In this document: positions 25,044 through 62,640 of the stretch, piece after piece
Position numbering within the stretch: the stretch's first letter is position 1
How the letters are laid out: every line of letters starts with the position of its first letter
NCBI GenBank assembly: GCA_964460615.1
Contig: CAYWPX010000004.1
Coordinates: 19,116-83,115 of the forward strand
DNA: 64,000 nt
Source: an uncultured Planctomycetia bacterium
GTDB lineage: Bacteria; Omnitrophota; Gorgyraeia; CAYWPX01
Reading direction: 5' to 3'
The notes under the pieces: generated by a model
Seen by the model: only the letters and a program-made list of their open reading frames with translations
The model's database searches: none
What the model was told of the DNA's origin: nothing
Program-made: the position numbers and the translations under genes

Positions 25044-25130
25044 GAAATTTATTGCTCCCGGCTCCAGGCTACAAGCTCCAAGCTCAATAAGTTTTTCATG
25101 AGCCAAGAGCCATGAGCCAAGAGCTAGTGT

Positions 25131-25592
25131 TTACCATTCCCTCGGAACCTGGCCGGAATAATCCCCCCATTTTGAATCCAGAGGATTCTTTATGTTAATA
25201 TAAACTTCCGCTGTGTCCGGGTGATACAGCCATCCCCCTTCGCTATATGCCGGTTCTTCGTTTGATACCGAATCAATATAAGTATTATTACCGGATTTTG
25301 AGCTTACAAGCTCAGGAGGCATTTTGGATAAATACGGCTTTTTCACTCCCAGATCAAGATACTGAGTTGTCAGTAGATCACCCAGGGTGGCAGGATATCT
25401 ACCTTCTTTGGCCCTAAAAAGAGTTATGCGATTCCTCAGAGAATCAAGATTTGTTTTTGAAGATGTTATTCGCGCCTCGACGTCAAACCCGATAAAATTC
25501 GGAATAAGCGTCGCAGCTAAAATTCCGAGTATAGCTATGACTATGAGTAGCTCTATGAGGGTGAATGCTAATTTGTAAGAATTGTTGTGCAT
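25131..25592 (-). CDS. Major pilin / GspG-PulG-like pseudopilin
   Basis: MHNNSYKLA|FTLIELLIVIAILGILAATLIPNF followed by a GspG-like body (..TNLDSLRNRITLFRAKEGRYPATLGDL..), 153 aa. Confidence 0.7.
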   Translation of the reverse strand: MHNNSYKLAFTLIELLIVIAILGILAATLIPNFIGFDVEARITSSKTNLDSLRNRITLFRAKEGRYPATLGDLLTTQYLDLGVKKPYLSKMPPELVSSKSGNNTYIDSVSNEEPAYSEGGWLYHPDTAEVYINIKNPLDSKWGDYSGQVPREW

Positions 25593-25708: not shown

Positions 25709-26926
25709 TTAATGTCTAAAAACTTTTATCAAATTAAAGATCGGCATAAGTACCGATAGCGCGATGAAACCTACCATCAGCCCCATGGATAAAAGAAGCG
25801 CCGGTTCCATAATCGTAACCATATTCTTAATGGAGCTCTCTACTTCTCTATCATAAAAAGAAGCTATCTCAAAAAACATCTGGTCGAGCTTTCCGCTCTT
25901 TTCTCCTACGTTTATCATCTGGACGACCATTGCCGGGAAGAGCCCGCTTGCCTTAAATGCCTCAGTCAGGCTTCCGCCTTCGGAGATAAAAACCCTAATG
26001 TCCTGTATTATCCTGCGCATAAACGTATTTGTTATCGTCTTTTCAAGTACCAAGAGCGATTCCAGCATTGGAACACCGGATTTTGTCATGGACCCAAGCG
26101 TCCTTACAAATCCCGCTATGAGTGTTTTGAGATAAAGATCGCCAAAAACCGGTATTCTAAAAAGTTTTTTATCGAGATTAAATCTTCCTTTAGGGCTCGC
26201 CTTATATGCTTTAAACCAAATATAAAGCCCAAAAATCATCGCTGCAAACACATACCAGAAGTTCCTTATCAAAAAACTCATTTTTAGAAGCACTAAAGTT
26301 GGTATCGGAAGCTTGGCTCCGGCAGTTTCAAATAGAGACGCAAATTTAGGAAGAACCACCGCTACCATGAAAGTTATAACGCTTAAACCGACTACCACGA
26401 GAATCAATGGATATATGGCGGCTGATTTTATCTTCCCTTTTGTTTCAAGTTCATGAAGGCCGGTAGTCGCAAGCCTATCCAATACCTCGTCAAGGTTACC
26501 GGCCGTCTCAGCCACTTTGACCATCGAAGCGTAGGTTTCGGGGAAAACCTTTGGATAGAGCCTAAGAGTTTCGGAAAAACTTTTACCTTTTTCAATATCT
26601 TCTAAAATTGCCTTAATGATAACTTTAAAATTTTTATCTTTAGCCTGGTCGAGAAGACCTTCAAGAGCAGTTGTGATGGCAACACCCGAATGAAGCATGG
26701 TGGATAACTGTTTAATAAAAAGTATTACTTCCTGCTCCGAGATCTTTTTTGGTTTAAAACCAAATTTTTCAAATGCTTTCTTTATCTCGGTCTTTTCTTT
26801 GACATATACTACCGTATAACCGAGCTGCTTAAGGCCCTTGGCGACCGTAAACTCATCTTTACCGTCGATAGACCCATCCAGTAAATTCCCCTGACGGTCA
26901 CGCGCTTTATATGTGTATTGTGTCAT
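25709..26926 (-). CDS. pilC: Type IV pilus / T2SS platform protein PilC/GspF
   Basis: 405 aa with two GspF-type cytoplasmic domains and three TM segments. It ends in the typical MPIFNLIKVF. Confidence 0.85.
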   Translation of the reverse strand: MTQYTYKARDRQGNLLDGSIDGKDEFTVAKGLKQLGYTVVYVKEKTEIKKAFEKFGFKPKKISEQEVILFIKQLSTMLHSGVAITTALEGLLDQAKDKNFKVIIKAILEDIEKGKSFSETLRLYPKVFPETYASMVKVAETAGNLDEVLDRLATTGLHELETKGKIKSAAIYPLILVVVGLSVITFMVAVVLPKFASLFETAGAKLPIPTLVLLKMSFLIRNFWYVFAAMIFGLYIWFKAYKASPKGRFNLDKKLFRIPVFGDLYLKTLIAGFVRTLGSMTKSGVPMLESLLVLEKTITNTFMRRIIQDIRVFISEGGSLTEAFKASGLFPAMVVQMINVGEKSGKLDQMFFEIASFYDREVESSIKNMVTIMEPALLLSMGLMVGFIALSVLMPIFNLIKVFRH

Positions 26927-26932
26927 ATAGGT

Positions 26933-28918
26933 TTAATTTAATTTTTTATTAATTTTCTTATCAATTCTTTTAAGCATTTTTTTTGCGCTCGAGGCAAATT
27001 TAGATTTGGGATAATCTGCCAATAATTTTTCAAATATTTGTTTTGAATTTTGATAATCCTTAAAATTTTTGTAAGTAATTTCTCCTGCCCTATATAACGA
27101 CTCATCCGCTTTAGGGCTATCTGGGAACTGGGTGGCAACCAAAATATAAGTATCAACCGCATCCATCAATCTTGTCCTGTCATCCTTGTATTGGCTTTCA
27201 GCCCCCCTATTAAAGCGCAGGTCCTCTGCTCTCTCAAAATAGATCATTGCGGTATTTCTCTTGCCGGTAGGAACTATATCCACTACGACCTCAGGAGGTT
27301 GCTTTGTATCCGGTGATTTTATCGCATCCTGAGATTTTATTATATGAGGAGTAATAAAGACCGCTAACTCCTGCTGGGAGTCTTTTGTAGACCTGTCAGA
27401 AAATAAATAACCGACAACAGGTATATACCCAAGTACCGGTATCCTGTTTACAGTCTTATTATCTTCACTCTTAATAAGCCCGCCTATTACTATTGTCTCT
27501 CCGTCTACTACTCTTACGGTTACATCGGCTTCACGGGTATTTACTGTCGGGCCTGTTGTAGCATCATTGCTTACTAAACTCGATACCTCGGGATGTATAT
27601 TCATTGTAACAAACCCATCCGAACTAATCCTTGGTAATACCTTAAGCGTCGTACCAACGTCAATAAATTTTGTATTCTCTACCGTACCTGTTGTAGTTGT
27701 GGTCTTCTCCTTATAAGGTACCCTCTGGCCTATTACAATTCTTGCTTCTTTGCCATTCAAAGTTGTTATGGAAGGAGAGGCCAATAAATGCGCTTTCCCG
27801 TCCCGTATAAGCGCGTCGACAGTGGCACTAGCCGTAAAATTTTTGAGAGTAAATGTTGTCAGCTTAAACTGCCCGCCTGTAAGATCGCTGGAAGGCCCTG
27901 CCAATGTAGTAGTACCTGCTACTGTTTCAGGAAACCGCGTAGCTCTGTCAAATAAACCGCGGCCGGGGCTATAATTTGCGCTATAGGTAACGCCGATATT
28001 TGAAAAAGCATCTGCCTGAAGATCCACTATCTTTGCCTCTATTACAACCTGCATAGGAGGGACATCTATCTCCTTTAAGAGCATATTTATTCTTTCGAAT
28101 GTCGCCGGATAATCCGTAACAATAAGGCTGGAGTTTGCTTCATTGGTGCTCATGGAGCCTTTATCGCTCAGTATTTTTGAAAGAAGCTTATAAGCATCGT
28201 CTACCGGAACGAATTTTATACCGATAGATTTAGTTATCATACCCTGCGATTCGGCGCTTGGGCCGGGTGAGATATAAATAATGCTTCCTTTGCGTGTATA
28301 GGCATAACCATTTGTAGATAATATAGCTTCCAAAGCCTCGTCTACAGTAACATCTCTCAAAGAGATGGTGACCTTTCCTTTAATATCTTTTAAGGCGACA
28401 AGATTAAGGCTGTAGGAATATGAGAGCGCCCTAAGAACACTTGAAAGATCGGCATCTTTATAATCAAGGGATATCTTATCATTAGGTCCCAATTTTCCTT
28501 CAATAGGCTTTTCTCCGGAAGCGTCCTCTAACCCGGACAGATCAATAATTGAGCTGGTTTTATCTGAAAAAGTTTTCCCCTCCGAAGGAGTCTCTTTGGC
28601 GCTCTCGCTCGTCGCGGGCACTTCATGGACAGATTCTGTAGGGCTCTCTTCAGTAATAAGAGGCGCGACATCAGCTTCGCCGGATATTTGTTCCGGGGCC
28701 TCCTCAATAGGCTCTGAAACCTTTTTTTCCTCAATGGGTTTTTTCTCCAGATATAAAACCGGTTTAGTATTGTTGACATCCTGGCACAACCCTGTTGCAA
28801 TAAAAATAGACCCCAGAAAAAATATCGACAGAGCCGACCGCAGAAAATACTTGCTCAATAAGATTTTATTCATATTCACCTCGTAAATTAATAAGCTAGT
28901 TAAATGGAACTTCCCCAT
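26933..28918 (-). CDS. pilQ: Secretin PilQ/GspD family with a C-terminal TPR-like extension
   Basis: The secretin C-domain contains GGLIKSEDNKTVNRIPVLGYIPVVGYLFSDRSTKDSQQELAVFITPHIIK, preceded by N0/N1-like domains. It has a signal peptide and is 661 aa. Confidence 0.85.
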   Translation of the reverse strand: MGKFHLTSLLIYEVNMNKILLSKYFLRSALSIFFLGSIFIATGLCQDVNNTKPVLYLEKKPIEEKKVSEPIEEAPEQISGEADVAPLITEESPTESVHEVPATSESAKETPSEGKTFSDKTSSIIDLSGLEDASGEKPIEGKLGPNDKISLDYKDADLSSVLRALSYSYSLNLVALKDIKGKVTISLRDVTVDEALEAILSTNGYAYTRKGSIIYISPGPSAESQGMITKSIGIKFVPVDDAYKLLSKILSDKGSMSTNEANSSLIVTDYPATFERINMLLKEIDVPPMQVVIEAKIVDLQADAFSNIGVTYSANYSPGRGLFDRATRFPETVAGTTTLAGPSSDLTGGQFKLTTFTLKNFTASATVDALIRDGKAHLLASPSITTLNGKEARIVIGQRVPYKEKTTTTTGTVENTKFIDVGTTLKVLPRISSDGFVTMNIHPEVSSLVSNDATTGPTVNTREADVTVRVVDGETIVIGGLIKSEDNKTVNRIPVLGYIPVVGYLFSDRSTKDSQQELAVFITPHIIKSQDAIKSPDTKQPPEVVVDIVPTGKRNTAMIYFERAEDLRFNRGAESQYKDDRTRLMDAVDTYILVATQFPDSPKADESLYRAGEITYKNFKDYQNSKQIFEKLLADYPKSKFASSAKKMLKRIDKKINKKLN

Positions 28919-28981: not shown

Positions 28982-29872
28982 TTAATCCTGTTCAATGCTT
29001 ATTACTATCTCTTCTCCTGTTTTATCCTTAAGGATAACGCTTACTTTAGAAATATCCTTAATATACATTTCATCTATTTTGTCGCCTATCTTGTAAACTT
29101 CTCCGTTTATTATAGCGGTCCTTATCCCTCCAAACCAATTTACACCCTGAAGCTTGTATTTTTTCCCGACACTTTCCGAAACCATCTTTTTTTCGGGTTC
29201 CATTTTTGATTTAAAAGGACTTTTTGAAATACTCAAACGCTCCAGGTATGGCACCTTTATCTCCTCGACGAGCTCTGCCGGGCGCTCACTAAGAAAAGTC
29301 CCCAGTATGACCCTGCATTTAATGGCCCCCTGCATCCCGGTCTTTGGAGCCTCGAGCTCCAAAGAAGAGGGTTTAAGGAATTTTGAGATGTTTTCAAGGC
29401 GGTAAAGATAATTTACAAAATTTTCATACGAAGCATTCATTTTCATCTCTATCTCAAGCTTTGAATAAGTGGTCTTATTTTTTGTTGCGGTCGGCCGTAT
29501 GGATACAAAATCAACATTATAAGCATTTCCCTGCTTGATAAGTTCATTCAAAATAGTGGGGATCCTTTCGCGGTTAGTCAATTTATCTTCAACGTCATAC
29601 AACCGCTTCCTGGTCTTATCGTAACTTATCTTAAGCTCGTTTAATTCTATTTTCTCTTTTTCCAGCTGAGGGGCCTCGGATTTAACGCTTGAGAGTTTTG
29701 TTTCGATGGACTTGATTTCGATTTTAAGCTTTTTAAGCTTGATATTCATCGGTTTATAAATAGCATTAAAATAAAAACTGAAAATAAATGCGAATACAAG
29801 CCCCAGGACAAGATACTGCTCCCGCTTTTTAAGCGCATTGAATTTATCTAATAGTTGGCGGTAATTTATCAT
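28982..29872 (-). CDS. PilO-like protein with a C-terminal PilP-like beta-domain (apparent PilO-PilP fusion)
   Basis: The N-terminal TM plus coiled-coil is PilO-like. The C-terminal ~70 aa, KLQGVNWFGGIRTAIINGEVYKIGDKIDEMYIKDISKVSVILKDKTGEEIVISI, matches the PilP/GspC homology-region pattern. Confidence 0.55.
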   Translation of the reverse strand: MINYRQLLDKFNALKKREQYLVLGLVFAFIFSFYFNAIYKPMNIKLKKLKIEIKSIETKLSSVKSEAPQLEKEKIELNELKISYDKTRKRLYDVEDKLTNRERIPTILNELIKQGNAYNVDFVSIRPTATKNKTTYSKLEIEMKMNASYENFVNYLYRLENISKFLKPSSLELEAPKTGMQGAIKCRVILGTFLSERPAELVEEIKVPYLERLSISKSPFKSKMEPEKKMVSESVGKKYKLQGVNWFGGIRTAIINGEVYKIGDKIDEMYIKDISKVSVILKDKTGEEIVISIEQD

Positions 29873-29905: not shown

Positions 29906-29960
29906 AGCTATGAGCTATGAGCTATGAGCTATGAGCTATGAGCTATGAGCTATGAGCTAT
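29906..29960. repeat. Microsatellite (AGCTATG)x7.8 in the pilN-pilO intergenic region, overlapping the pilN stop codon
   Basis: Seven perfect tandem copies of AGCTATG plus one partial copy. The same heptamer family occurs at 1961-1990, 12411-12433, 14131-14162, 17491-17526 (inverted) and 25050-25125. Confidence 0.9.
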
Positions 29961-30541
29961 ATTGCCGGATGCGTAATGATCTCAAACTCTATAAACTTTT
30001 CTTTCTTCTCGGATTCCGGCCGTTCCGTATAAGAAAAATTTGTATCATTAAATATCTTTGACTTATCAAGCTCTATCATAAAATTACTTATCGATTCAAA
30101 TTTAGTTGTTTCCCCCTTAATTTTCATAGTCTCAGGATTAAGTATAATATTCTTGACCCAGAGATCCTCCGGGACAAGCTTCACTATCCCTACAAGATAT
30201 TTGCTTAAGGCAAAAGACCCTTCTTCCAGATCCTTGAGGGCTTTTAGTTTATCGTCAAGCCGTGCCTTATCAGCGATCAATTTTTCTTTATCTTTTTTGA
30301 TCATTTCCAGAGTACCTTTTGAGGATTCAAAATCATTTTTAGTTTTGTTGAAATTATTTGTCACTGATACAAGTTTTTTTGAGTAGACTTTAAGCATCGA
30401 AGCCTGATAGATAGTAACAACCACTCCTATTATGATAAATAGCGATACAGCATCCAGAAAAAGCGACTTTTTAAGAAATGGGAGCTTTATATAACTGGAT
30501 GATTTTCTTTCGCTATATAGGAGATTTATTCTTTTCTTCAT
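29957..30541 (-). CDS. pilN: PilN-like pilus assembly protein
   Basis: MKKRINLLYSERK (an INLLP-like motif), a single TM, then a coiled-coil. 194 aa. Confidence 0.65.
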   Translation of the reverse strand: MKKRINLLYSERKSSSYIKLPFLKKSLFLDAVSLFIIIGVVVTIYQASMLKVYSKKLVSVTNNFNKTKNDFESSKGTLEMIKKDKEKLIADKARLDDKLKALKDLEEGSFALSKYLVGIVKLVPEDLWVKNIILNPETMKIKGETTKFESISNFMIELDKSKIFNDTNFSYTERPESEKKEKFIEFEIITHPAI

Positions 30542-30650: not shown

Positions 30651-31880
30651 TCATTCTTCCTCTTGTATCTTTCTGTACGCAAGACCTATGGAGACAGCAA
30701 AATTAGCTGCTAGCTGCTCAATATTAAATTTCTTTTGCAATTCATTATTGATATTAAGACCCTTGACCGGATTTGCCATCTCTACAGGCACGTCGAGCCT
30801 TGATTTAATATATTCGGGAAGCCCTTTAAGATGCGAAGTTCCTCCCGCAAGAATAAGCTTACTTAGATTTGTCACACGTGATTTCATAAGCTGATATGAA
30901 AAATATTTAAACGAATGTTCCACATCATTTGCCAGATTTTCCAAAAGCGGGATGATCGCATTTCTCACAGTGAGCCCTTCCGGCGAACTTCCCTCGATAC
31001 CAAAATTAATTTTAAGACTTTCGGCAGTGTTGGGGTCCACGTTACAATAGCTGGCTATGGATTTTGATATTGAATCACCTGTAACACTCAGGTTTCTGGA
31101 AAAATAAATTTTTTTGTTCAGGCTGATGCTGAAGTTAACAAGGTCAGAACCTATATCAAGAATTCCTATGGGCTCATTATCAACCTGCCCTGAAAGTATC
31201 AACGCCTCATTAAGCGCAAAGGGATCCACCTCAACAGCCAGAACGTTGAAGCCGGATTTCCTGAATACCGATATGTGGTTAGAGATCACTTTTTTGGTAG
31301 CTATCACCAGAAGCACCTCAAGCTCATCCCTATTGCTTTCATGCGCGTCGCTTAGTAACAGCGTATCCAAAGAAAATTCGTCTATCTTTTCGCCGTAAGC
31401 CTGTTTTAATTCCCACAAAACAGCGTCATTTATCTCTTTTAGCGGCATGGTAGGGAGTTTCAGGATCTTGATCTCAACCGCTCCTGCCGGAAGATTGACG
31501 TATATATCTTTTGGCTTTTTGTCCTTAAAAGCGCTTTTGAATAACTTGAGAAGGAATTCATTCCTTTCAGTCTCTGAGGTTTCACGGCTGACACTGGGGA
31601 CCTCGAACATTCCTAGATCAAAAAGCTGGATATTCCCTGATTTATCTTTTGCGAACTGCGCAAATTTAATGAAATTGGATCCTATATCAACCCCGAAAGG
31701 ATAGAATTTTGCTATGTCTTTCTCTCTTAGGCTCTTTGCATTTTCCTCGGCTTTTATGCCGGGGATAACACCCTTGTGCTTCTCAAAAAAAGATGCTATC
31801 TTATCGCGCTTCTCGGTAGTAGCGGCGACTTTTTTGAATATCGACTCTACAATATTTTCTTTAGGATTAGTTTCTGCCAT
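30651..31880 (-). CDS. pilM: PilM-like actin-fold pilus assembly ATPase
   Basis: 409 aa. The GVDIGSNFIKFAQF phosphate-1 motif and the overall sugar-kinase/actin fold pattern are typical of PilM. Confidence 0.75.
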   Translation of the reverse strand: MAETNPKENIVESIFKKVAATTEKRDKIASFFEKHKGVIPGIKAEENAKSLREKDIAKFYPFGVDIGSNFIKFAQFAKDKSGNIQLFDLGMFEVPSVSRETSETERNEFLLKLFKSAFKDKKPKDIYVNLPAGAVEIKILKLPTMPLKEINDAVLWELKQAYGEKIDEFSLDTLLLSDAHESNRDELEVLLVIATKKVISNHISVFRKSGFNVLAVEVDPFALNEALILSGQVDNEPIGILDIGSDLVNFSISLNKKIYFSRNLSVTGDSISKSIASYCNVDPNTAESLKINFGIEGSSPEGLTVRNAIIPLLENLANDVEHSFKYFSYQLMKSRVTNLSKLILAGGTSHLKGLPEYIKSRLDVPVEMANPVKGLNINNELQKKFNIEQLAANFAVSIGLAYRKIQEEE

Positions 31881-31889
31881 AAATTATAT

Positions 31890-32843
31890 TTATACTAATG
31901 CCTCTTGGTTAAGTTGCGTAGACAATTCAACCTGTTTTACTGACTGCGGCTCTAAAATACCTAAAACCTCTTCCGCTAACGCCAAATAGTCGGCCGCCCC
32001 TTTGGAGCGGGGTTCAAAAAAATTAACAGGTTTTCTATATATCGGCGACTCGCAAATTTTTGAATTAGTATGTATAACAGAATTTAACATAAGATTTTTA
32101 AAATATGCCTTCAACTGTTCTAAGATAAGTTTATTGATGCTGAGCCTCGGGTCATAGATCGTAGGAAGAATGCCGAGTATCCTTAATTCAGAATTTAGTT
32201 TTTCTTTTATTATATTTATGGTTGATAAAAATTCCTTTAGGCCTTCGAGTGAATAATAATGCGTCTGAATAGGTATAAGGATATTTCTTGAAGCCGCAAG
32301 CGCATTCACCGTCAAAAGACTGAGTGACGGGGAGCAATCAATTATTATATAATCATAAAGATTTGTTATATTGGATTCGCAAAGGGCGCGTCTGAGCATT
32401 GACTCCTTGGAATCAAACTGCGCAAGTTCCGTAAGCGCGCATGCCAACACCGGAGTAGTAGGCGCGATATTCAGCCCCGGTATCAAAGTCGGCACGATAA
32501 CATCATCAATTTTCAGACTGCTATCTGTAAGAACATTGTAGATAGATTTTGTAACGTTATTTATATCTATGCCCAATCCAAGACTGGCGTGAGCCTGAGG
32601 GTCTAGGTCAATAATTAGAACATTTTTCCCTTTTGCTACCAAAGCGCCGGCAAGATTTATGGTAGTGGTGGTCTTCCCGCAGCCGCCTTTTTGGTTTGCC
32701 ACAGCAATAATATTGCTCGTTTTGACATTTACGGGCCTGATGTATTCAACCTTTGAAAACTTTTTCTTTGGAAATATGGAGATGGGAGTATTTAAAAATT
32801 TTATTGATTCATTCGCCAATTTTACCAAGCTAAATTTTTTCAT
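31890..32843 (-). CDS. ParA/MinD-family P-loop ATPase with a ~45-aa N-terminal extension
   Basis: Deviant Walker A VANQKGGCGKTTTTINLAG, Walker A' IIDLDPQ, Walker B IIIDCSP. It overlaps the response-regulator stop by 4 nt and ends 10 nt before pilM. Confidence 0.8.
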   Translation of the reverse strand: MKKFSLVKLANESIKFLNTPISIFPKKKFSKVEYIRPVNVKTSNIIAVANQKGGCGKTTTTINLAGALVAKGKNVLIIDLDPQAHASLGLGIDINNVTKSIYNVLTDSSLKIDDVIVPTLIPGLNIAPTTPVLACALTELAQFDSKESMLRRALCESNITNLYDYIIIDCSPSLSLLTVNALAASRNILIPIQTHYYSLEGLKEFLSTINIIKEKLNSELRILGILPTIYDPRLSINKLILEQLKAYFKNLMLNSVIHTNSKICESPIYRKPVNFFEPRSKGAADYLALAEEVLGILEPQSVKQVELSTQLNQEALV

Positions 32844-33226
32844 TTTTGGCCACCTATGTATTTTGAAATTAATTCCATCAGGTCTTTTGTGTTAAACGGT
32901 TTTGTCACATATTCATTCACACGAACCTGCTCACCGATCTTTCTGTCACTTTCCTGTGTTTTTGCGGTAAGCATTATTATGGGGATCTCTTTATACTTTG
33001 TATCAAATTTCAAAAGCCTTGCTACCTCATATCCATCGATTTTAGGCAAAAGCACGTCGAGAATAATCAGGTCGGGTTTAAGCGATCTTGCCTTGTCAAG
33101 CCCTTCCTGCCCATTCGTCGCAGTCAGCACTCCATATCCCGATGCTTCAAGCCTCACCTTAAGGGCATCCAATATCGGAACTTCATCATCTACAACTAAA
33201 ATTGTTTTTTTATCGTTATCAGCCAT
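32840..33226 (-). CDS. Single-domain CheY-like response regulator
   Basis: ILVVDDEVPILDALKVRLEASGYGVLTATNGQEGLDKARSLKPDLIILDVLLPKIDGY. Its start overlaps the histidine kinase stop by 1 nt. Confidence 0.85.
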   Translation of the reverse strand: MADNDKKTILVVDDEVPILDALKVRLEASGYGVLTATNGQEGLDKARSLKPDLIILDVLLPKIDGYEVARLLKFDTKYKEIPIIMLTAKTQESDRKIGEQVRVNEYVTKPFNTKDLMELISKYIGGQK

Positions 33227-34581
33227 TATAATACCAGTCCTTTATTCAGATTATTCAATAATTCCACGGGAGTTTTTCCATCCTCCGGAAAACTTGTGAG
33301 GAAGTATTCAAATTCTATTTTTACATTTATATTGTGAGCCTTAAACTCCTCTTTATCAAGCAATTTTTTTATTTTTTGTGCCAGATGATCAGCTTCTCTT
33401 TTTGATCCGGCCATGGCTGATATTAAAATATATCTGCCTCTAAAGCAACCTGTCTTTATAGCAGATTCTCTTATATAATTTGCCGCGGCTTTAACAGCGC
33501 TTTCCATAAGATCGCAGAGCTCTTTACCGGTAAGCGACGGAAGCCTTGATAAGGAACCTTTTGTTATATCAAATACTATCAGGGAAAACGACTTATCATT
33601 TTTGATAAGATCTCTTAGATGCTCTAAAAGAATATCGTCTTCAGAAAATCTGGGGATAGTAAAAGTAAAAGTCGAGCCCTTACCTATAACAGACTCAGCG
33701 GAAATTTTCCCCCCGTGCATCTCAACTATCTCTTTTGAAATAGCCAACCCCAGCCCCATACCGCCTATTAAAGACGGTTCTTTTCTTTTTTCCAGCAGAT
33801 ACATCTTACTAAATATCTTTTCAAGATCGTCCTTGTCAATGCCTCTGCCTGTATCAGTAACGGAAATTTCTACTCTGTTATCAAAATCCCTGAGACAAAC
33901 TGTTATGTTGCTGTAAAAAGGCGTGAACTTAACGGCATTCCCGGTAAGATTGACTATAACCTCCGATATCTTATCGGGATCTATCGATATAGGCGCAACA
34001 TTATCCGGCATTTCGATGGAAAATTTTATGCCTTTTGAGGCATTATTAATTTTAATGACCTCTATCTCGTTTTCAATAAGCTTTTTTATGTCAGCCTCTT
34101 TTCTTTTTAAAGAAATTTTCCTGTTTTCAAGGATCTCGACATTAAGAAGATTGTCGACCAGGCGCGCTAACCTATCTATGGATAGCATAATAGCCTTAGT
34201 ATATCTTTTTTGATTATCCGTCAAAGGCCCCGCTATCTCATCCTGTATAATAGAGGCAAATTCCCTTATACTCACCAAAGGAGTCCTGAATTCATGGGAA
34301 ACCTTGGAAATAATATTTGATTTAAATGCATCCAAGCTTTCGAGTTCGACTTTGATCATCTCACAACTTCTATGCTCCATTATTTCCCTGTACCACAAAA
34401 AAATCACAGAAATAAAAATTGTCCCCAGTATAAATTCCGTAGAGATAAATTCTTTGTTTGGAAAAAATAAAATATTGCAGATCCTTATTAATAAAAGAAG
34501 AATTATAAGAGAAAGAACGAGGATCTTGTATTTTTTGGTTAAAAGTGTTTTGAGTATGTAGCTTCTTTCGGTTTTTATCAT
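33226..34581 (-). CDS. Membrane sensor histidine kinase with a C-terminal degenerate GGDEF-like domain
   Basis: Two N-terminal TM helices. H-box SHEFRTPLVSIREF. HATPase_c with G-boxes DTGRGI and GGMGLGLAI. The ~140-aa tail aligns with GGDEF domains, but the active site reads RGRYI instead of GGDEF. Confidence 0.7.
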   Translation of the reverse strand: MIKTERSYILKTLLTKKYKILVLSLIILLLLIRICNILFFPNKEFISTEFILGTIFISVIFLWYREIMEHRSCEMIKVELESLDAFKSNIISKVSHEFRTPLVSIREFASIIQDEIAGPLTDNQKRYTKAIMLSIDRLARLVDNLLNVEILENRKISLKRKEADIKKLIENEIEVIKINNASKGIKFSIEMPDNVAPISIDPDKISEVIVNLTGNAVKFTPFYSNITVCLRDFDNRVEISVTDTGRGIDKDDLEKIFSKMYLLEKRKEPSLIGGMGLGLAISKEIVEMHGGKISAESVIGKGSTFTFTIPRFSEDDILLEHLRDLIKNDKSFSLIVFDITKGSLSRLPSLTGKELCDLMESAVKAAANYIRESAIKTGCFRGRYILISAMAGSKREADHLAQKIKKLLDKEEFKAHNINVKIEFEYFLTSFPEDGKTPVELLNNLNKGLVL

Positions 34582-34740
34582 TTGATAAATAGGGTTATGG
34601 GTTAAGGGTCATGGGCCAAGGGCTTAACCCTTTCCCCTCACCCCAAAACAGTTTTTAGATGGCCCAGCTGCGCAATAAGTTGCAAAAATCCCTCCTTATA
34701 GATTAAAAACAATCTCTAAGTTCGATATTTTTGCAACGCT

Positions 34741-34771
34741 TGGCTGGGCATTTAATTGCATAAATAAAATT
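34741..34771. promoter_or_regulatory. Perfect 14-bp inverted repeat (ttaattgcataaat-aaa-atttatgcaattaa) immediately downstream of pilB and upstream of the HK-RR-ParA-pilMNOQ genes
   Basis: Read directly from the sequence. A second 10-bp IR, ttgcaaaaat...atttttgcaa, lies at 34680-34738, together with G-rich GGGTTA-like repeats at 34595-34640. Confidence 0.4.
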
Positions 34772-34778
34772 TATGCAA

Positions 34779-36569
34779 TTAAATAGACTCCGCAACTCGC
34801 ATTATTTCACTGATCGTCGTAATACCTTCGAGGACTTTTTCATAGCCGTCCTCTTTAAGGGTCCTCATACCGTTTTTCTTTGCAACCTCTTCTATCTGAT
34901 AAGCGGCCGCCTGTTTTAAGACAAGCTCTTTAATATCTTCATCCACGGTAAGAAGTTCATAAATACCGATCCTGCCTTTGTAGCCTTTATTCTTACACTC
35001 CGGGCAGCCGGTCTCTTTGTATAGCATGGTATTTTTGTTTAATTTTCTTCCAAGGTTTTTTTCCAGAAACTCTATTTCTTCATCCTTGGGTTTATACTCT
35101 TTTCTGCATTTAAAGCAGAGTTTCCTTATAAGCCTCTGCGCCACAACTCCTGTGAGGCTTGAAGAGATCAAAAACGGCTCTATACCCATATTCAATAATC
35201 TGGTCACAGCACTTGAAGCATTATTGGTATGAAGTGTTGAAAAAACAAGGTGCCCCGTAAGAGCGGCATGTATGGAGATCTCTGCTGTTTCTACGTCTCT
35301 TATCTCGCCTATCATTATTATGTCCGGGTCCTGCCTAAGGATACTCCTGAGTCCATTGGCAAATGTAAGCCCGGCCTTTGGATTTATCTGAGACTGCCTG
35401 ATCCTTGAAATAACATATTCAACGGGATCTTCGAGGGTAATAATATTTTTATTAACTTCATTGATATCATTTAAAACGCCGTAAAGAGTTGTTGTCTTGC
35501 CGGAGCCGGTAGGCCCAGTGACAAGCATAATCCCAAAAGGCTTCCTGATCATCTCTTTTAATTTTTTAAGGGCTGCCTGCGAAAAACCCAGATCCTCAAG
35601 CCTGTAAAACCCAGATGTTTTATCGAGGATCCTGATGGAAATATTCTCTCCATATATCGTCGGAAAACTTGATATCCTGAGGTCTATCTTTTTATCTCCG
35701 ACAACCATATTAATACGGCCGTCCTGCGGAAGGCGGCGCTCTGTTATGTCCATCTCCGCCATGATCTTAATCCTTGATATAATTGCGGCTTCAAGTTTTT
35801 TTGGGACAGGCTCAAAAACAGAATCATATAAAACTCCGTCGACTCGGTAACGAATATAAAAATTGTGCTCATCCGGCTCTAGGTGTATATCGGATGCCTT
35901 TGATTCTACGGCGTCATTTATAAGTTTGTTGACTGTATTTATGATCGAAGGTTGTATTGCTTCTTTGATCGCCTCTTCGTCTCTGGGGCTTGGTGGAGCC
36001 GCTTTTTTTCTATCGGCCTGGCCTTGAACAAAATGTTTCTCCAGAGAAACTTTTTCTTCCGGCATGGCGGCTCCGCCGCCGACACCGCGCTCAAGTCCCA
36101 TAAAATCTCTTTTTGAGTCGGTGGAAACTTTTGCTTTGTAATATTTTTCTATGGAATTTTTTATTGAAGTCGGAGTTGCAAATATCGGCCGGATAGTCAT
36201 GCCGGTTGCGCGCCTTACCTCATCTATTGCGTCAACATCCAAAGGATTGACCATGGCAACAGTAAGAGCATCGCCAATAATATAAACGGGCATAATACTA
36301 TGTTTTGAAACTAATTCAAATGGTATTTTCGATAAGCAGTCTTTATCGATCTCGTATGAGGAAAGGTCTATGTAAGGGTAACCGATCTGTTCAGAGAGGG
36401 CTATTCCGATGTCTTCCTCGCCGACAAAACCGAGTTTCATAAGTATGGAAGCGAGTTTTTTGCCGGTTCTCTTTTGCTCTTCTAAAGCAATATTGAGCTG
36501 GTCACGGCTTATTATGCCTTTTTTTACCAGTATCTCACCAATCAGTGGTCTGCCGAATTCCTGGTCCAA
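34779..36569 (-). CDS. pilB: Type IV pilus assembly / T2SS ATPase PilB/GspE
   Basis: N-terminal T2SSE_N domain. Walker A GPTGSGKTTTLY, Asp box, His box. Tetracysteine motif CFKCRKEY...CPECKNKGYKGRIGIYELL. 596 aa. Confidence 0.9.
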   Translation of the reverse strand: MDQEFGRPLIGEILVKKGIISRDQLNIALEEQKRTGKKLASILMKLGFVGEEDIGIALSEQIGYPYIDLSSYEIDKDCLSKIPFELVSKHSIMPVYIIGDALTVAMVNPLDVDAIDEVRRATGMTIRPIFATPTSIKNSIEKYYKAKVSTDSKRDFMGLERGVGGGAAMPEEKVSLEKHFVQGQADRKKAAPPSPRDEEAIKEAIQPSIINTVNKLINDAVESKASDIHLEPDEHNFYIRYRVDGVLYDSVFEPVPKKLEAAIISRIKIMAEMDITERRLPQDGRINMVVGDKKIDLRISSFPTIYGENISIRILDKTSGFYRLEDLGFSQAALKKLKEMIRKPFGIMLVTGPTGSGKTTTLYGVLNDINEVNKNIITLEDPVEYVISRIRQSQINPKAGLTFANGLRSILRQDPDIIMIGEIRDVETAEISIHAALTGHLVFSTLHTNNASSAVTRLLNMGIEPFLISSSLTGVVAQRLIRKLCFKCRKEYKPKDEEIEFLEKNLGRKLNKNTMLYKETGCPECKNKGYKGRIGIYELLTVDEDIKELVLKQAAAYQIEEVAKKNGMRTLKEDGYEKVLEGITTISEIMRVAESI

Positions 36570-36794: not shown

Positions 36795-39700
36795 TTACTC
36801 TGAATCTAACTTATCTTGGCTGTTATCTTTTTGGAACATATTCTTTTCTTTATCCATGCCCTCTTTTGGTGTTGTAGCCTGAGGCGTAACCTGCTGCGGC
36901 TGAGGAGCAAGTTGCTGCGGCTGAGGCGCAATGGACTTAACTGGGCTAGTGCTTATAGAAGGTGTAACTATAGTTTTCACTTTTGGCGCTATCATTGGCC
37001 TTACTTCTCTCCACATCCTTACATTTACTCCCGCGCCTTTTACGGTTCCGAATGTCACTGTCCCTGGCACGCTTAATAATAGAGGAGTCGATGTAGGCGT
37101 AATGGTCACTACCTCGCCCTGTGTGTCCCTGACGATAAATTTGGCTACACCGTTCATAATAATCACAGGCTTCGTCACCGCTTCTGATGTTGAAGATGCA
37201 TCATCGATTGCCTCACTAAGCGAAATTGTAAACCTAGTTGAACTATCCTGGGTTATTATATTACCGCTTGAATCGACTATTTGAACATCTACCTCTTTGG
37301 CACCAACAGGAGAAGTAGTCGAAATGATCTTTATAGTTCCCTGCCTGATTGTAAAATTACCTGAGCCGGTTACAGAATTATTAATCCTATCCTGAACGGT
37401 AAATGTCTTTAATTCTTCGCTGGAACCTTTAAGGCCGACAAACTTATGCAAGCCCAGATCACTAGCGCTAAATGTATAGGACGCCGGCAAGCCAAAGCTG
37501 GTATCTGATATCCCGACAGTCCCGGAATAATTACCTATCTTGGCGCCGTTATAATCAAGTGCGACTAAATCCATATTGAACGGTTCATTTACATAGTAGA
37601 AATTCCTTGATGCTAGCGGCCTGGATAAACTGATGGCAAAATTATTCGGGTTGAAGGTTATGATTTGCGAAATACCCTTTTTCGTCGCATCGGTTCCGTC
37701 GGAAGCTACAATCCTGATTGCGCCCCATTTATTGTAGGTAACTCCTGAGAGCCTGGCTAAGCCGTTATTAAAATCTGCATCACTGAGAACGGCTTTTGAT
37801 AGTGTGCCCTGTTGGTTAGTTGACGGCGTTACATACTGAATAGCGAGGTTCGCGGGACCTGCATAATTGGGCGTTACCCCTCCGGAAGCGGATCTGGCGG
37901 CAACATCAATACTGAACGGCCTATTAACAGTCTGGCTGGTACCGGTTACGCTTGAAGAACTACCGGTTGAAGTTGCGGTCGATGAAGCATTGGAAGTAGT
38001 TGACGCGTTATACGCTGAGGTAGTAACGACAAAATCATACGGGATAAATGCGATATTACCCGATTCCCCTTCGATCGTCGGATCTGTACTTTGGGCGGCT
38101 TTGATCACAATTGTCCCGCAATCATTATATTTGGCATTAACTGTCGCCACTCCATTTGACCATGAAGAATGAGACTCAGGAGTTAAAGTCTTAGTTCCGC
38201 TATCCGGAGTAACATAAGTTGTCGCAAGATTTATCTCTTCGGAATAATTTGTTATGGTTACATTGTCAGCGCCTTTGGCTGTAATGGTAATTTCAAATTC
38301 AACGCCACTAACCTGCTGGCTCGAGGCTGAAACAATGAAACTCCCGAGCCTGAAAGTATCCGCGGCAATATTTTCGACCTGATCTATAACTGTTTCATTA
38401 TTGTCTGGGAGTTTTATATAAATACTGTAGGTACCGTCACTGCCAACTGAAATTGGATTCATAATGCTGGTTAATGTGAGCCTTTCGGTCCCGGAAGATT
38501 CCAGAGACCCACTACTTCTAACGATCCTTACTGTTGTAGTGCTTGGGTTAGAAACAACAAGATCACCGTCTATCGTTGACGAACTAACTGAGGTTGTGCC
38601 TTTTGAATTAAGGGTAAAGGAACTTGAAAACACAACATCTATTATAGCGTTTGAAGGCAGCTGCTTTGAGGTAGTAAAATCTACCATCACTTCACCCGTC
38701 GAACCGGCTACAAGGCTTGCCGGCTGGACATTGGCGGTAGAGATGGTATCGCCGGTTACGGGAACCTTATACCAATTTATGCATCCTGTAACATTTGTAG
38801 AATTTTTGACATAAACCGGTATGTTTGATATGCCGCCTGTAACAGTAAGATAATCGTAACTAAGATACTCGACTCCTGATTTTGTAAAATTAATAGACCA
38901 AGTCCCGGCACTTGAAGAGGATTGCAAAGTTATAATGCCTGTACTTGAAGAAGCTAGAGTCAGGTCGCTGGCAATAATCTGCGTTGAGCTATCGGCAAAC
39001 GATAATTTTTTCCCGCCTGTTGTACAGTTAAGATTGTAGAACGTATTATCACCCGATATTTCGGAATCCATAGTAGAATAGAAACTTACCGTTCCGGATG
39101 AATTGACAAACTGGCCCAGATCATTTGTGAAATTACCTTTTAAAGTGAATGACTTTGATGCCGCCGGAGCCACAAAGCGGCCGTTAAAATACATATTATT
39201 TTTTATATCGAGATTACTATTAGTAAACACAGCTTCTGATGCCGTCCCTATTGAGAAGCTGCCGCCTATAACCGTACTACCGGTGCCTGATATAATTTTA
39301 CCTCCGTTACGGATATTGAGATCCCCGACAACATTTACATTATGGTTTCCAAAATTAATTGTCCCCGAGTAATTATTTATTTCCATGGACACCAGGGTGA
39401 TATCTACGTCTACATTGCAATCACCAAGGCCTTCGGAACCGAAATAAACCATATCCCCCGCCTCCGGCACAGATAATCCTCCGGAACCGCTTTCATAGTC
39501 AGACCAATTGGCAGCACTGTTCCAGAAAGCTGTATTTTGGGCAACCCAATACCTTTTTACACCAAGAAAAATCCATGGAGGTACTGTATTATTGCCGCCG
39601 TTATTTGAATCACTTGCAGTAATAGTATAATTAGTCCCATCGGGTATTAATACCGCCGAATCTGAAACATTTACACCTGTTACTGAATAGGATTTATTTA

Positions 39701-62576: not shown

Positions 62577-62610
62577 TTTACACCTTTTTGGGCTTATGCA
62601 TAATAATAAC

Positions 62611-62640
62611 AAAAAACCCAAGCTCCAATTTCCGCTTGGG
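62611..62640 (-). terminator. Hairpin plus U6 intrinsic terminator/attenuator about 35 nt upstream of the giant gene start codon
   Basis: The minus-strand RNA reads cccaagc-ggaaauugga-gcuuggg followed by UUUUUU. It is located between the structured leader (62641..62870) and the RBS of the giant gene. Confidence 0.5.

Follow-up and report, generated by a model that had tools for sequence, protein, structure and literature searches.

The locus studied here raises the question of why a gene cluster for a type IV pilus should contain a ParA-like ATPase, and what this ATPase might act upon. In a Candidatus Omnitrophota genome, a histidine kinase (HK), a stand-alone receiver (RR) and a ParA-like ATPase are encoded by consecutive minus-strand ORFs within a cluster of the order pilB…pilMNOQC-pilin. 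The whole stretch of DNA that was analyzed, 64,000 nucleotides in length, is referred to as the window. All three ORFs were recovered exactly where an earlier note on this DNA had placed them (Table 1), and reading of the DNA confirmed the overlaps of one and four nucleotides that it had reported. Stop and start codons of the HK and receiver genes have one base in common (TAATG), the receiver and ATPase genes overlap by ATGA. The position between pilB and pilM was also borne out, by an MshEN-T2SSE PilB upstream and a PilM_2 protein downstream. The ATPase gene indeed ends close to pilM, but the reported 10 nt was a coordinate difference; the true spacer between its stop codon and the pilM ATG comprises 9 nt.

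Table 1. Features of the pilus cluster and its surroundings (positions in the window)
Feature	Position	Strand	Basis or remark
Giant adhesin-like ORF, 8,608 aa, heads the same-strand gene array	36795..62621	-	NHL repeats, Laminin_G_3, Arylesterase-like region
PilB-type assembly ATPase with N-terminal MshEN (c-di-GMP-binding type)	34779..36569	-	T2SSE 466 bits, MshEN 75 bits
pilB-HK spacer, 197 nt, three strong hairpins	34582..34778	-	Folding energy compared to shuffles
Histidine kinase, 451 aa	33226..34581	-	HisKA 53 bits, HATPase_c 97 bits
Degenerate GGDEF-like domain, HK C-terminus, ~aa 315-451	33229..33639	-	Via homologous HKs
Stand-alone receiver, CheY-like response regulator, 128 aa	32840..33226	-	Response_reg 94 bits; translational coupling on either side
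Soj-type ParA-like ATPase, 317 aa, 'KGGC' subfamily	31890..32843	-	AAA_31 184.5 bits, CbiA 86 bits (Pfam)
ATPase N-terminal extension, aa 1-43 (short conserved helix, then variable linker)	32715..32843	-	Family alignment, AF2
PilM, 409 aa, actin-like cytoplasmic platform protein	30651..31880	-	PilM_2 127.8 bits
PilM N-terminal extension, aa 1-62, bears the peptide pair	31695..31880	-	PilM_2 match begins at aa 63
PilM peptide motif 1, NIVESIFKK, aa 9-17	31830..31856	-	F15 invariant in alignment
PilM peptide motif 2, KRDKIASFFEK, aa 24-34	31779..31811	-	Basic residues, then aliphatic-x-x-aromatic/aliphatic-F
PilN, N-terminus MKKRINLLY, canonical PilM-binding	29957..30541	-	PilN 44.5 bits; one TM helix, aa 23-52
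PilO with C-terminal CdsD_C/T2SSB-like (PilP/GspB-like) domain	28982..29872	-	PilO 45.5, CdsD_C 24.9, T2SSB 16.6 bits
Secretin (PilQ/GspD-like) with C-terminal TPR	26933..28918	-	Secretin 174.6 bits; STN, Secretin_N, TPR_6
PilC/GspF platform protein	25709..26926	-	T2SSF 206 bits, two stretches
Major pilin-like protein	25131..25592	-	N_methyl 30 bits
Further pilin-like ORFs downstream of the major pilin	24693-25106, 24058-24513, 22724-23971	-	N_methyl also in 22724-23971

PilM, PilN, PilO, a secretin, an assembly ATPase, a platform protein and N_methyl prepilins were all detected above the Pfam cut-offs in the window, and profile searches of the 64 kb revealed neither pilT nor a separate pilP. 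Against NCBIfam, PilB scored just below the equivalog cut-offs of both type_IV_pilB (621 bits, cut-off 675) and GspE (605 bits, cut-off 630), which leaves the choice between T4aP and T2SS unsettled; its c-di-GMP motif domain reached 64 bits. The pilB-HK spacer is predicted to fold much more stably than shuffled sequences (MFE -81.4 kcal/mol, shuffle mean -47.5, z = -7.4). It matched no Rfam family, the element is not repeated elsewhere in the window, and no consensus promoter or terminator was called within it. The giant adhesin-like ORF possesses one N-terminal TM segment or signal anchor (aa 22-48). Omnitrophota T4aP/'T2SS-like' loci of the same type, in which gspD/E/F-like and pilin genes lie next to a giant adhesin-like ORF, have been described (Seymour 2023; West-Roberts 2023), and word searches of both papers gave no mention of a ParA-like ATPase, a PilM extension or a two-component insert.

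By sequence and predicted fold, the ATPase of the pilus cluster is of the Soj/ParA type. A phmmer search against solved structures yielded 8ray_B (2e-61) and HpSoj (3e-50), with 6iub and 1wcv (Soj/ParA) also among the best matches and MinD at 1e-14. The AF2 model (pLDDT 84) gave Foldseek TM-scores of 0.90-0.96 to Soj/ParA chains at 38-44% identity; McdA and MinD ranked lower, and FleN, FlhG and MinD stood far under Soj. An FlhG/MinD-like role, which had been thought possible, thus finds no support, since neither sequence nor predicted fold resembles MinD, FlhG or TadZ. MinD itself was rejected by its NCBIfam model (TIGR01968 minD_bact, 37.5 bits, cut-off 212.9), and the C-terminus (LEPQSVKQVELSTQLNQEALV) has a polar and acidic character, unlike the basic-hydrophobic, amphipathic helix by which MinD/FlhG target the membrane. 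TadZ/CpaE was rejected because the ATPase lacks a fused REC domain and, instead of tad genes (TadA/CpaF, RcpA, Flp pilin), is surrounded by those for PilM/N/O, a secretin, PilB (MshEN), PilC and N_methyl pilins. The deviant Walker A motif reads NQKGGCGKTT (aa 50-59, 32667..32696, minus strand). No member of the family departs from K52, K57, D81 or D169, which comprise the signature Lys, the Walker A Lys and the Asp residues of Walker A' and B, in accordance with an assignment to the ParA/MinD superfamily. C55 was kept in 25 of 25 homologues, a set gathered by homology alone, and is replaced by Val in the Bs, Hp, 8ray and MinD references. An NJ tree of the ATPases, which carries no bootstrap support, gave a shallow split from canonical Soj. 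For BsSoj, a non-specific DNA-binding patch consisting of R189/K201/R215/R218 has been reported (PMC6393308). The equivalent residues of the window ATPase are R, K, T and K; due to the non-basic equivalent of R215, seen in 13 of 13 Omnitrophota copies, nucleoid binding is uncertain, the remaining patch positions being mostly K or R.

Given this relationship, the ATPase might be a housekeeping or dual-use partition protein (Soj) that merely precedes pilM, with ParB encoded elsewhere and the PilM peptide described below irrelevant or a competitor of ParB. Omnitrophota genomes are small, three of the four patch residues are kept, and the nearest solved structures and sequences are those of chromosomal Soj/ParA, to which the identity (40-44%) is almost as high as between members of the ATPase family. 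However, a canonical chromosomal parA normally adjoins parB, and searches for ParB-like ORFs came up empty both in the window (E≤1) and in all of ~110 related loci (E≤10). For parS, one consensus match at three mismatches occurred in the window, compared to 1.19 expected by chance. A ParABS partition system was therefore rejected, as neither an adjacent ParB (CTPase/HTH) gene nor parS is present in the window and no ParB in the fetched loci. Soj-like clustering in conjunction with a parB/parS neighbour had been named as the finding that would speak against a dedicated pilus ATPase; since neither lies nearby, the dedicated reading is not refuted. Furthermore, ParA directly precedes pilM, in many cases with an overlap, in 34 independent loci (26 clusters at 90% and 19 at 70% identity), a recurrence that is not due to chance, and a second order, pilM-N-O-ParA-X-pilQ, exists in ~20 Planctomycetota-type loci. 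The linkage to pilus genes has thus been kept in two gene orders and two phyla, which speaks against a housekeeping ParA. The same applies to tandem ParA duplicates with duplicated partners (L015, L016, L020 and L032, the latter in the order ParA-X-ParA-X, ATPase and peptide protein having been duplicated together) and to the MAG CAYFUB01, which has two KGGC ParAs (L044 and L076). Two loci (L028, L058) encode a fusion of ParA to a cadherin adhesin with a TM anchor, and some related ATPases are fused to CBM48; together with the invariant Walker A Cys, these fusions point to a distinct cargo-type clade. We consider a housekeeping ParA improbable, although the ATPase could be the only ParA of the cell. 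The conservation of ParA next to pilM across deep divergence supports the proposal of the earlier note, an ATPase dedicated to the pilus cluster, over a stray chromosomal parA.

As a possible site of partner interaction, the N-terminal extension of the ATPase had been suggested. This extension exists: ~43 residues precede the Walker A strand, and the family alignment revealed similar extensions in most Omnitrophota homologues, which begin with the pattern M[LF]x[DE][LI]Kxx[IF] and continue as a variable linker. In the AF2 model, residues 4-17 form a low-confidence helix, and the linker is disordered. A role as partner interface found no support, since the pilus-linked ATPase copies of Planctomycetota lack the extension and the amphipathicity of the helix is not significant (µH 0.61 versus 0.50±0.13 in shuffles). 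Judged by the sequences, the N-terminal extension of PilM is the better candidate.

In both phyla, the ORF directly after the ATPase begins with a conserved short peptide. This ORF is pilM in Omnitrophota, in Planctomycetota it encodes a bitopic, PilP/GspB-like protein (protein X) in which the peptide lies at the cytoplasmic N-terminus and a single TM helix leads to a periplasmic domain. The peptide of protein X, GL[HQ]K.[IV]SSIF, has the same register as the N-termini of ParB proteins (GLGRGLEALL). PilM of the window contains two motifs. Motif 1 ([DN][IL][VI]xx[IV]F) is present in all Omnitrophota-type loci, motif 2 has the consensus [KR][KR][IV]S[ST][IL]F in relatives and aligns in register with the Planctomycetota peptide GL[HQ]Kx[IV]SSIF and with ParB GLG[RK]G[LI]xAL[LF]. 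PilM of the window shows the basic residues together with I-x-S-[IF]-F. Gly-Leu, however, is missing from the Omnitrophota PilM peptides, which are further derived than that of Planctomycetota, and for the window itself the analogy to ParB is consequently weaker. The Omnitrophota PilM peptides look like a derived, duplicated form of the ParB-N-terminus-like peptide, with putative binding to ParA. One locus (L014), in which a Planctomycetota-type peptide is fused to PilM, forms a bridge between the two arrangements. The N-terminus of ParB is the element that binds and activates ParA; it contains a conserved Leu and Arg, and the R9A substitution abolishes binding (PMC11229316). ParA/MinD proteins generally bind to the N-terminal region of their partners (PMC11407121). 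A strict regular expression for the peptide matched 32 of 3,618 ORFs, ~27 of them directly following ParA, and the ParB-matching pattern GL.[KR].[ILV]..[IL][LF], which fits Tt SGLGRGLEALL and Bs KGLGKGINALF as well as the X proteins of Planctomycetota, matched 25 of 4,044 ORFs with 21-22 directly following ParA, figures that are partly circular because the motifs were set after inspection of the sequences. The N-terminal extension is conserved among PilMs linked to ParA, and all PilM proteins of metagenome loci with ParA upstream contained the motif (23/23). The negative class comprises only two PilMs without an upstream ParA, neither of which has a clear motif, the extension being missing in L108 and ambiguous in L103.

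It might be objected that the peptide is no ligand of ParA, but binds PilB, PilC or, like PilN, the groove of PilM, or acts as a targeting signal, the presence of the ATPase having another explanation. The N-termini of PilN proteins are known PilM ligands, and the membrane topology of protein X is that of PilN. On the other hand, in Omnitrophota as in Planctomycetota, PilN or a PilN-like protein has kept an I[ND]LL motif of its own (INLL in the window), so that the PilM groove is already served. Moreover, the peptide is always found on the gene directly after ParA, with which it was duplicated in L032, and it also follows the ParA-adhesin fusions, where no pilM is nearby. Together with the register shared with ParB and the two PilMs that lack both an adjacent ParA and a clear motif, this makes a ligand other than ParA very improbable.

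The detection of a HisKA/HATPase_c kinase and a Response_reg receiver is in agreement with the two-component system that had been proposed. Both kinase domains exceeded the cut-offs, the H-box SHEFRTPL is visible as in orthodox systems, and two N-terminal TM-like segments (aa 13-43 and 44-63) are separated by almost no loop. According to translation and Pfam, the receiver possesses the full phospho-acceptor set (DD13-14, D57, T87, K109) and no output domain. The C-terminal domain of HK was recognized as GGDEF in homologous kinases (45 bits in L099, 30.8 bits in L002), the window copy being undetected by Pfam. Its signature position reads FRGRY, KKRHV or KRRKA; the domain is presumably non-catalytic, and a diguanylate cyclase was rejected because the GG[DE]EF signature is missing. 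The conservation of an HK-RR-ParA-pilM linkage in relatives, which the earlier note had recommended to check, was confirmed for ParA and pilM, but the HK-RR-ParA triple is lineage-specific. The nearest homologues of the receiver adjoin pilB as often as ParA.

In most Omnitrophota, the slot of the HK-RR pair is occupied by a mini-MerR HTH gene: all ten small ORFs tested directly upstream of ParA were of this kind, and L003 has one as well. It is conceivable that the ATPase is a regulator of assembly or number, similar to FleN/FlhG, which would control a transcription factor or the number of machines in an ATP-dependent way, or a static hub, similar to TadZ/CpaE, and that it acts through mini-MerR or the phosphorylated receiver. 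TadZ/CpaE proteins consist of a REC-like domain fused to the ATPase, an architecture that is mimicked by a receiver gene followed by an ATPase gene. TadZ is thought to connect the apparatus to landmarks at the pole (PMC11407121). However, the Soj-like sequence and fold do not fit FleN, FlhG or TadZ, the conserved peptide is found on structural platform proteins and not on the HTH protein, and no mini-MerR was seen in Planctomycetota clusters with ATPase and peptide. A regulator or hub is for these reasons rather unlikely; it would be compatible with the pilus as cargo, the two explanations not being exclusive.

We lean towards the explanation that an orphan Soj-type ParA has been recruited to a type IVa-like pilus machine, whose platform would be bound as cargo via ParB-like peptides. 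Gene order, domain identities, the kept linkage and the peptide that accompanies ParA were observed directly, as was the lack of parB/parS; the contact of ParA and peptide, the matrix, the outcome for positioning and the target of the receiver are what we infer. As the signature Lys and the Walker residues are invariant, the ATPase probably forms ATP-dependent sandwich dimers. These dimers would reside on a matrix, most likely the nucleoid, by means of the partly conserved basic patch, and would bind ParB-N-terminus-like peptides that the pilus alignment complex exposes on its cytoplasmic side. The window genome would offer two such peptides, both in the 62-aa extension of PilM, and Planctomycetota a single one at the N-terminus of the bitopic PilP/GspB-like protein. 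By analogy with ParB, a basic residue of the peptide might stimulate ATP hydrolysis. The ATPase may thereby place or space PilMNOQ platforms or license their assembly, in the manner of other ParA/MinD ATPases and their cargos, a role in keeping with the spatial positioning of the pilus machine suggested earlier. In this lineage, a kinase (TM-HisKA-HATPase-degenerate GGDEF) and a receiver appear to have been inserted ahead of the ATPase in translational coupling, and may have added control by a phospho-signal through contact with ParA, PilB or PilM. More tentatively, a ParABS-style Brownian ratchet may be envisaged with the envelope-spanning pilus machine as cargo. ParB-mimicking peptides on PilM or the PilP/GspB-like protein would bind and fire the Soj-type ParA, platforms and, in related loci, ParA-fused membrane adhesins would be distributed or sited relative to the nucleoid, and HK and the receiver-only regulator would gate the process in this lineage.

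Among known systems, ParABS (B. subtilis Soj-Spo0J, H. pylori HpSoj-HpSpo0J, T. thermophilus Soj) shares with the pilus cluster the ATPase subfamily, the deviant Walker A motif, the signature Lys and a putative partner gene directly downstream, whose short basic/hydrophobic N-terminal peptide resembles the GLG[RK]G[LI]xAL[LF] register. What separates the pilus ATPase from ParABS is the lack of a ParB CTPase/HTH protein and of parS at the locus, the pilus platform protein as putative partner and the Walker A Cys in place of Val; in addition, the Omnitrophota copies have lost one position of the DNA-binding patch and carry an additional helix with linker at the N-terminus. In Tad (type IVc) pili, too, the gene cluster of a type IV filament includes an ATPase of the ParA/MinD superfamily, TadZ/CpaE, which is needed to place or assemble the machine (PMC11407121), and the receiver gene of the window, which precedes and is translationally coupled to the ATPase gene, echoes its fused receiver-like domain. 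By contrast, TadZ has been described as MinD-like with a receiver-like domain that is non-phosphorylatable, and it belongs to tad loci (TadA/CpaF, RcpA), whereas the window ATPase is Soj-type without a fused receiver, lies in a pilMNOQ/pilB/pilC (T4a/T2SS-like) cluster and is accompanied by a separate receiver that is phospho-competent by its residues. FlhG/FleN of flagella and MinD4 of Haloferax, which acts on the archaellum and chemosensory arrays, are also ParA/MinD ATPases controlling the number or position of machines, the archaellum itself being a type IV filament machine (PMC11407121); unlike the window ATPase, they are MinD-like with membrane-targeting helices. McdA-McdB of carboxysomes, PomZ-PomX, ParC-ParP and PpfA resemble the proposed pilus system in that an orphan ParA is engaged by the N-terminal activating peptide of an adjacent adaptor and the cargo is a protein machine, not DNA. 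Here, however, the cargo would be an envelope-spanning pilus platform with the peptide fused to a core subunit, and by Foldseek the ATPase is nearer to chromosomal Soj than McdA is.

The siting of T4aP machines is known in few model species, in which it relies on FimV, PocAB, MglA/SofG or secretin AMIN domains. To our knowledge, none of these routes uses a ParA. A family review of 2024 lists the MinD-like TadZ/CpaE of Tad pili as the only pilus-linked member of the ParA/MinD family (PMC11407121), and no prior description of a pilus-platform ParA with a ParB-like peptide was found in the literature. If true, a Soj-type ParA tied to PilM by a ParB-like peptide would represent a new cargo class for the ParA/MinD family, in which an interface of DNA segregation has been copied onto a protein machine. 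In Omnitrophota, attachment to prey or hosts has been ascribed to these pili and the giant adhesins next to them (Seymour 2023; West-Roberts 2023). Should the same ParA also serve a chromosomal ParB, such ultra-small predatory or epibiotic cells would link the placement of pilus machines to the segregation of their chromosome. The peptide signature may be used to annotate clusters and to find further ParA cargos, such as the adhesin and CBM48 fusions. A peptide of ~30 residues and a single ATPase would provide a testable handle on how the cells of two little-known PVC phyla are organised.

The pilus region is encoded entirely on the minus strand, as revealed by ORF calls and domain searches in the window (see table). 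From the names of the organisms that carry homologues, the window belongs to Candidatus Omnitrophota. Between pilB and pilM, the earlier note had described a histidine kinase, a receiver and a ParA-like ATPase that are translationally coupled. This observation was confirmed as a whole: the kinase and receiver genes overlap by 1 nt (TAATG), the receiver and ATPase genes by 4 nt (ATGA), and a 9-nt spacer precedes pilM. The C-terminal domain of PilO (28982-29872) may stand in for a separate PilP, and the secretin carries a TPR/YfiO-like region at its C-terminus. A pilT gene was not found across the whole 64-kb window. The giant ORF stands at the head of the same-strand array in which the pilus genes lie, a position already reported for giant genes of Omnitrophota. 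At its N-terminus it has a single TM helix or signal anchor. Pfam recognised NHL repeats, a Laminin_G_3 domain and an Arylesterase-like region in it, and nothing in its C-terminal 4,304 aa. Downstream of the pyrimidine operon lie genes for an 824-aa protein with six PKD domains (6486-8960) and for a pilin-like protein with an N_methyl and a DUF1559 (SBP_bac_10) domain (9531-10247).

Gene order of the pilus region and its flanks in the window
Feature	Coordinates	Strand	Remarks
Giant ORF	62621-36795	-	8,608 aa
PilB	36569-34779	-	MshEN + T2SSE
pilB-HK spacer	34778-34582	-	197 nt
Histidine kinase (HK)	34581-33226	-	
Receiver (RR)	33226-32840	-	receiver domain only
ParA-like ATPase	32843-31890	-	
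PilM	31880-30651	-	
PilN, PilO	30541-28982	-	CdsD_C/T2SSB-like C-terminus on PilO
Secretin	28918-26933	-	
PilC	26926-25709	-	
Pilin-like genes	25592-22724	-	several ORFs
Pyrimidine-biosynthesis operon	21863-12556	-	

The window ATPase is of the Soj type and not of the MinD, FlhG or TadZ type. It scored 184.5 bits with the Pfam model AAA_31 and far lower with MinD, BcsQ and MipZ-type models. In a search of solved structures, its best sequence matches were chromosomal Soj/ParA proteins (8ray_B, 2e-61; HpSoj, 3e-50; TtSoj, 3e-49), compared to about 1e-14 for MinD. An AlphaFold2 model obtained with 25 homologues as input (pLDDT 84, core above 90) aligned with Soj/ParA chains at TM scores of 0.90-0.96 and 38-44% identity, followed at a distance by McdA, plasmid δ, archaeal MinD, BcsQ, ParA2, FleN, FlhG and MinD. 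The placement of the ATPase in a rough NJ tree without support values agrees with the Soj/ParA type. Since the signature Lys, the Walker A Lys and the Walker A'/B Asp are invariant in the family, an ATP-dependent dimerising ATPase is expected. Sequence matches, fold and tree thus lead to a Soj-type protein, and the MinD/FlhG-like (or TadZ) enzyme considered beforehand was not borne out, neither by sequence nor by predicted fold. The Walker A motif NQKGGCGKTT has a family-specific Cys in place of Val; all 25 homologues that were gathered purely by homology share this Cys. The nsDNA patch of BsSoj and HpSoj has been defined by four positions (PMC6393308), at which the window ATPase possesses R, K, T and K. 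BsSoj, EcMinD and BsSpo0J served as reference sequences; residues 21-185 of BsSpo0J were identical to 6sdk. Two further features were discarded. The N-terminal helix of the ATPase was considered as a membrane-targeting sequence; its hydrophobic moment (0.61) did not differ significantly from that of shuffles (0.50±0.13), acidic residues are present and the Planctomycetota copies are devoid of the helix. The equivalent of HpSoj F52, the cation-π partner of ParB R9, is Ile in B. subtilis and Leu in the window according to the alignment; as this residue varies even among canonical Soj proteins, it is uninformative on membership.

The most serious rival explanation is that the protein also, or only, serves as the housekeeping ParA. 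Its closest solved relatives are chromosomal proteins. The patterns of the genome scan pick KGGC-type ParAs only, and a literature search for parB of Omnitrophota yielded nothing. A nearby parB/parS partner, which the earlier note had named as a refuting sign, was not found. The window harbors neither a ParB-like ORF nor a second ParA, and parS did not occur above chance; in 87 fetched loci no ParB-like ORF was detected even at E≤10, nor did the metagenome loci obtained later show a ParB when their neighbours were typed. At the scale of the window and the fetched loci, the ATPase locus is therefore not a chromosomal partition locus.

What the ATPase is linked to is the pilus cluster. The contexts of homologues with 46-78% identity all showed the order ParA→PilM→PilN→PilO→secretin→PilC→pilin. 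A scan with the family alignment yielded 80 loci from species-representative genomes, which fell into three groups when their neighbours were typed by phmmer with the window proteins as queries. In Omnitrophota-type loci, ParA is located immediately 5' of pilM. About 20 Planctomycetota-type loci (labels Pirellulales, Sedimentisphaerales and Phycisphaerae) have the order pilB-pilC-pilin…pilM-pilN-pilO-ParA-X-pilQ, X being the protein encoded right after ParA. The third group comprises KGGC-type ParAs without neighbouring pilus genes, including fusions to CBM48 and cadherin-adhesin domains. A metagenome scan begun from PilM, with Omnitrophota PilMs only as query, gave 32 further loci, and every one containing upstream sequence and a ParA gene revealed the same adjacency. 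Altogether, ParA→pilM adjacency was found in 34 loci, corresponding to 26 clusters at 90% and 19 at 70% ParA identity. Of the HK-RR-ParA-pilM linkage, whose conservation the earlier note had put up for checking, the ParA-pilM part holds in relatives and the HK-RR-ParA part does not; most Omnitrophota loci have a small MerR protein there. Because the longest ORFs were called in the fetched loci, starts and overlaps are nominal; MAG taxon labels were kept as deposited.

Several loci deviate in detail. Tandem duplicates of pilus-linked ParAs were observed in L015:9091-10831, L016:1458-3258, L020:9097-10807 and L032:5-3711; in the last of these (label Candidatus Aegiribacteria), the duplication includes both ParA and the partner that bears the peptide, resulting in ParA-X-ParA-X ahead of pilQ. 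In L008:10936-12750, L010:5591-7414, L012:5350-7170, L106, L112, L113 and L116, the PilM ORF is about 600-650 aa long and a separate PilN was not detected; these are apparently PilM-PilN fusions that retain the N-terminal peptide. NQKGGC ParAs also exist in MAGs of archaeal methanogens (Methanobrevibacter/Methanobacteriaceae: L053, L056, L059, L061, L065, L066, L071, L072, L075, L078 and L087) and in L062, labelled Bacilli. In the unsupported NJ tree, canonical Soj is nearer to them than the pilus-linked clade is, and neither pilus nor ParB genes were detected close by.

The gene following ParA encodes a conserved peptide in both pilus-linked groups. Planctomycetota X, at the expected pilP position, is a bitopic protein of about 250 aa in which a Pro-rich linker joins the peptide to a single TM helix; a small periplasmic domain of the T2SSB/CdsD_C-like kind follows. 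Its N-terminal peptide is conserved as K-x-G-L-[HQ]-K-x-[IV]-S-S-I-F-x-G. In Omnitrophota, the protein concerned is PilM, in which about 60 extra residues precede the PilM_2 domain. This N-terminal extension contains two related motifs, [DN]-[IL]-[VI]-x-x-[IV]-F (F15 invariant; NIVESIFKK, aa 9-17, in the window) and [KR]-[KR]-[IV]-S-x-[IL]-F (KRDKIASFFEK, aa 24-34). A bridging form was found in L014, where a Planctomycetota-type peptide (KKKSGLQKDISSIFAGL) is fused to PilM. A strict motif regex, defined post hoc after inspection of the sequences as were all peptide motifs, matched 32 of 3,618 ORFs, about 27 of which are the ORF directly 3' of ParA. The PilM motif was present in all 23 metagenome loci having ParA upstream. 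In the two loci with upstream sequence and no ParA, L103 and L108, it was not clear: the extension is wholly absent from PilM of L108, and PilM of L103, whose start is uncertain, shows VNQIF only.

In its register, the Planctomycetota peptide matches the N-terminus of chromosomal ParB, the part that activates ParA (SGLGRGLEALL in T. thermophilus Spo0J, KGLGKGINALF in B. subtilis). In HpParB (1-MAKNKVLGRG-10), Leu7 and Arg9 are conserved and the R9A exchange abolishes ParA binding (PMC11229316). The pattern GL.[KR].[ILV]..[IL][LF] matched real ParB N-termini and 25 of 4,044 locus ORFs, 21-22 of these 25 sitting directly behind a KGGC ParA. The Omnitrophota PilM version of the peptide is missing the Gly-Leu. 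PilN retains its own PilM-binding INLL motif (MKKRINLLY), which speaks against the extra peptide being just another ligand of the PilM groove.

Fusions were encountered among the KGGC ParAs. In two Planctomycetota MAGs (L028:3530-7075 and L058:1162-8907), the ParA domain stands at the N-terminus of proteins that are 1,181 and 2,581 aa long; behind it come a linker, a single TM helix and repeats of the cadherin/Big_9/He_PIG types, which points to a cytoplasmic ParA fused to a membrane-anchored surface adhesin. After each fusion there is a conserved 97-aa ORF starting with a ParB-like peptide (TGLHKDVSVIFNGVW or AGLHKDVASIFQGIW). In L041:9995-11101 (Omnitrophota) and L081:10004-11158 (Myxococcota), Pfam assigned a C-terminal AMPK1_CBM/CBM48 glycogen-binding domain, suggesting a ParA that might directly bind glycogen granules. 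ORFs of similar length occur in L043, L054, L067, L069, L073, L079 and L082-L085, Pfam having been run on L041 and L081 only.

HK-RR-ParA is not a conserved triple. The order was found in L002, a close relative of the window; L005 and L102 have a PAS-HK with receivers on either side, L011 and L104 a receiver only, and L099 an HK-RR pair plus a mini-MerR. In most Omnitrophota loci, a 73-92-aa protein consisting of a MerR_1 HTH only is encoded directly 5' of ParA (10 of 10 tested, plus L003). Such mini-MerRs, none of which occurs in the window, were noted in L003, L008, L010, L012, L013, L092, L099, L100, L106, L112 and L113 and could be operon regulators or DNA anchors for ParA. The window kinase possesses two TM helices that are separated by hardly any external loop, and its H-box is intact. 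Its C-terminus alone had no Pfam match, that of homologous kinases scored as GGDEF (45 and 30.8 bits), and as the GG[DE]EF signature is lost in all three kinases, the domain is degenerate. The receiver lacks an output domain, and its phospho-acceptor residues are all present. Its nearest homologues (about 60% identity) are abundant in Omnitrophota, and in three of four sampled contexts they belong to arrays made up of HisKA-HATPase-GGDEF kinases and several receiver-only proteins, situated directly 5' of an MshEN-PilB/PilC/pilin cluster, indicating that phospho-relay modules are recurrently pilus-linked in this phylum. Candidate targets of the relay would be PilB, ParA or PilM, among which the gene context does not discriminate. 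HK-RR-ParA resembles a split TadZ by analogy only; receiver homologues adjoin pilB at least as often as ParA. A dense signalling array directly 5' of an MshEN-PilB gene in L121:1-12372 (Omnitrophota GCA_043813305.1), comprising a CheA-like hybrid kinase, CheB, at least 10 receiver-only proteins and two HisKA-HATPase-GGDEF kinases, is reminiscent of a Chp-like pilus control system.

The pilB-HK spacer has an MFE of -81.4 kcal/mol (z = -7.4 against shuffles). Its predicted fold comprises three strong hairpins, and a perfect 16-bp AT-rich stem in the first of them overlaps the pilB stop codon. A riboswitch or other known RNA was set aside as no Rfam match came near threshold. Neither a consensus promoter nor a terminator was called inside the spacer, and the element has no second copy elsewhere in the window.

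We propose that the ATPase, an orphan ParA of the Soj type, forms dimers with ATP on a matrix, most likely the nucleoid because most of the basic patch is kept. There it would capture, and be fired by, the ParB-like peptides that the pilus alignment complex displays on its cytoplasmic side, by which PilMNOQ platforms may be sited, spaced or licensed, and HK-RR would supply a lineage-specific signal input. The interpretation of the earlier note is supported in part: spatial positioning of the pilus machine is retained as a proposed outcome, a FlhG/MinD-like identity of the ATPase is not.

Omnitrophota T4aP/'T2SS-like' loci next to giant genes have been described (PMC10066038; 10.1101/2023.11.21.568195; 10.64898/2026.06.07.730766), and a word search of these three papers gave no mention of ParA in the loci. 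A link between ParA and pilM or T4aP was not reported in any of the open-access papers covered by targeted literature searches. The sole pilus-associated member listed in a review of the ParA/MinD family is the MinD-like TadZ/CpaE (PMC11407121). The pilus-linked ParA is a real, conserved feature that falls outside the ParA/MinD cargos described so far. The main weight of the finding is carried by the ParB-like peptide on PilM and on the PilP-like protein, through which the hypothesis can be tested directly.
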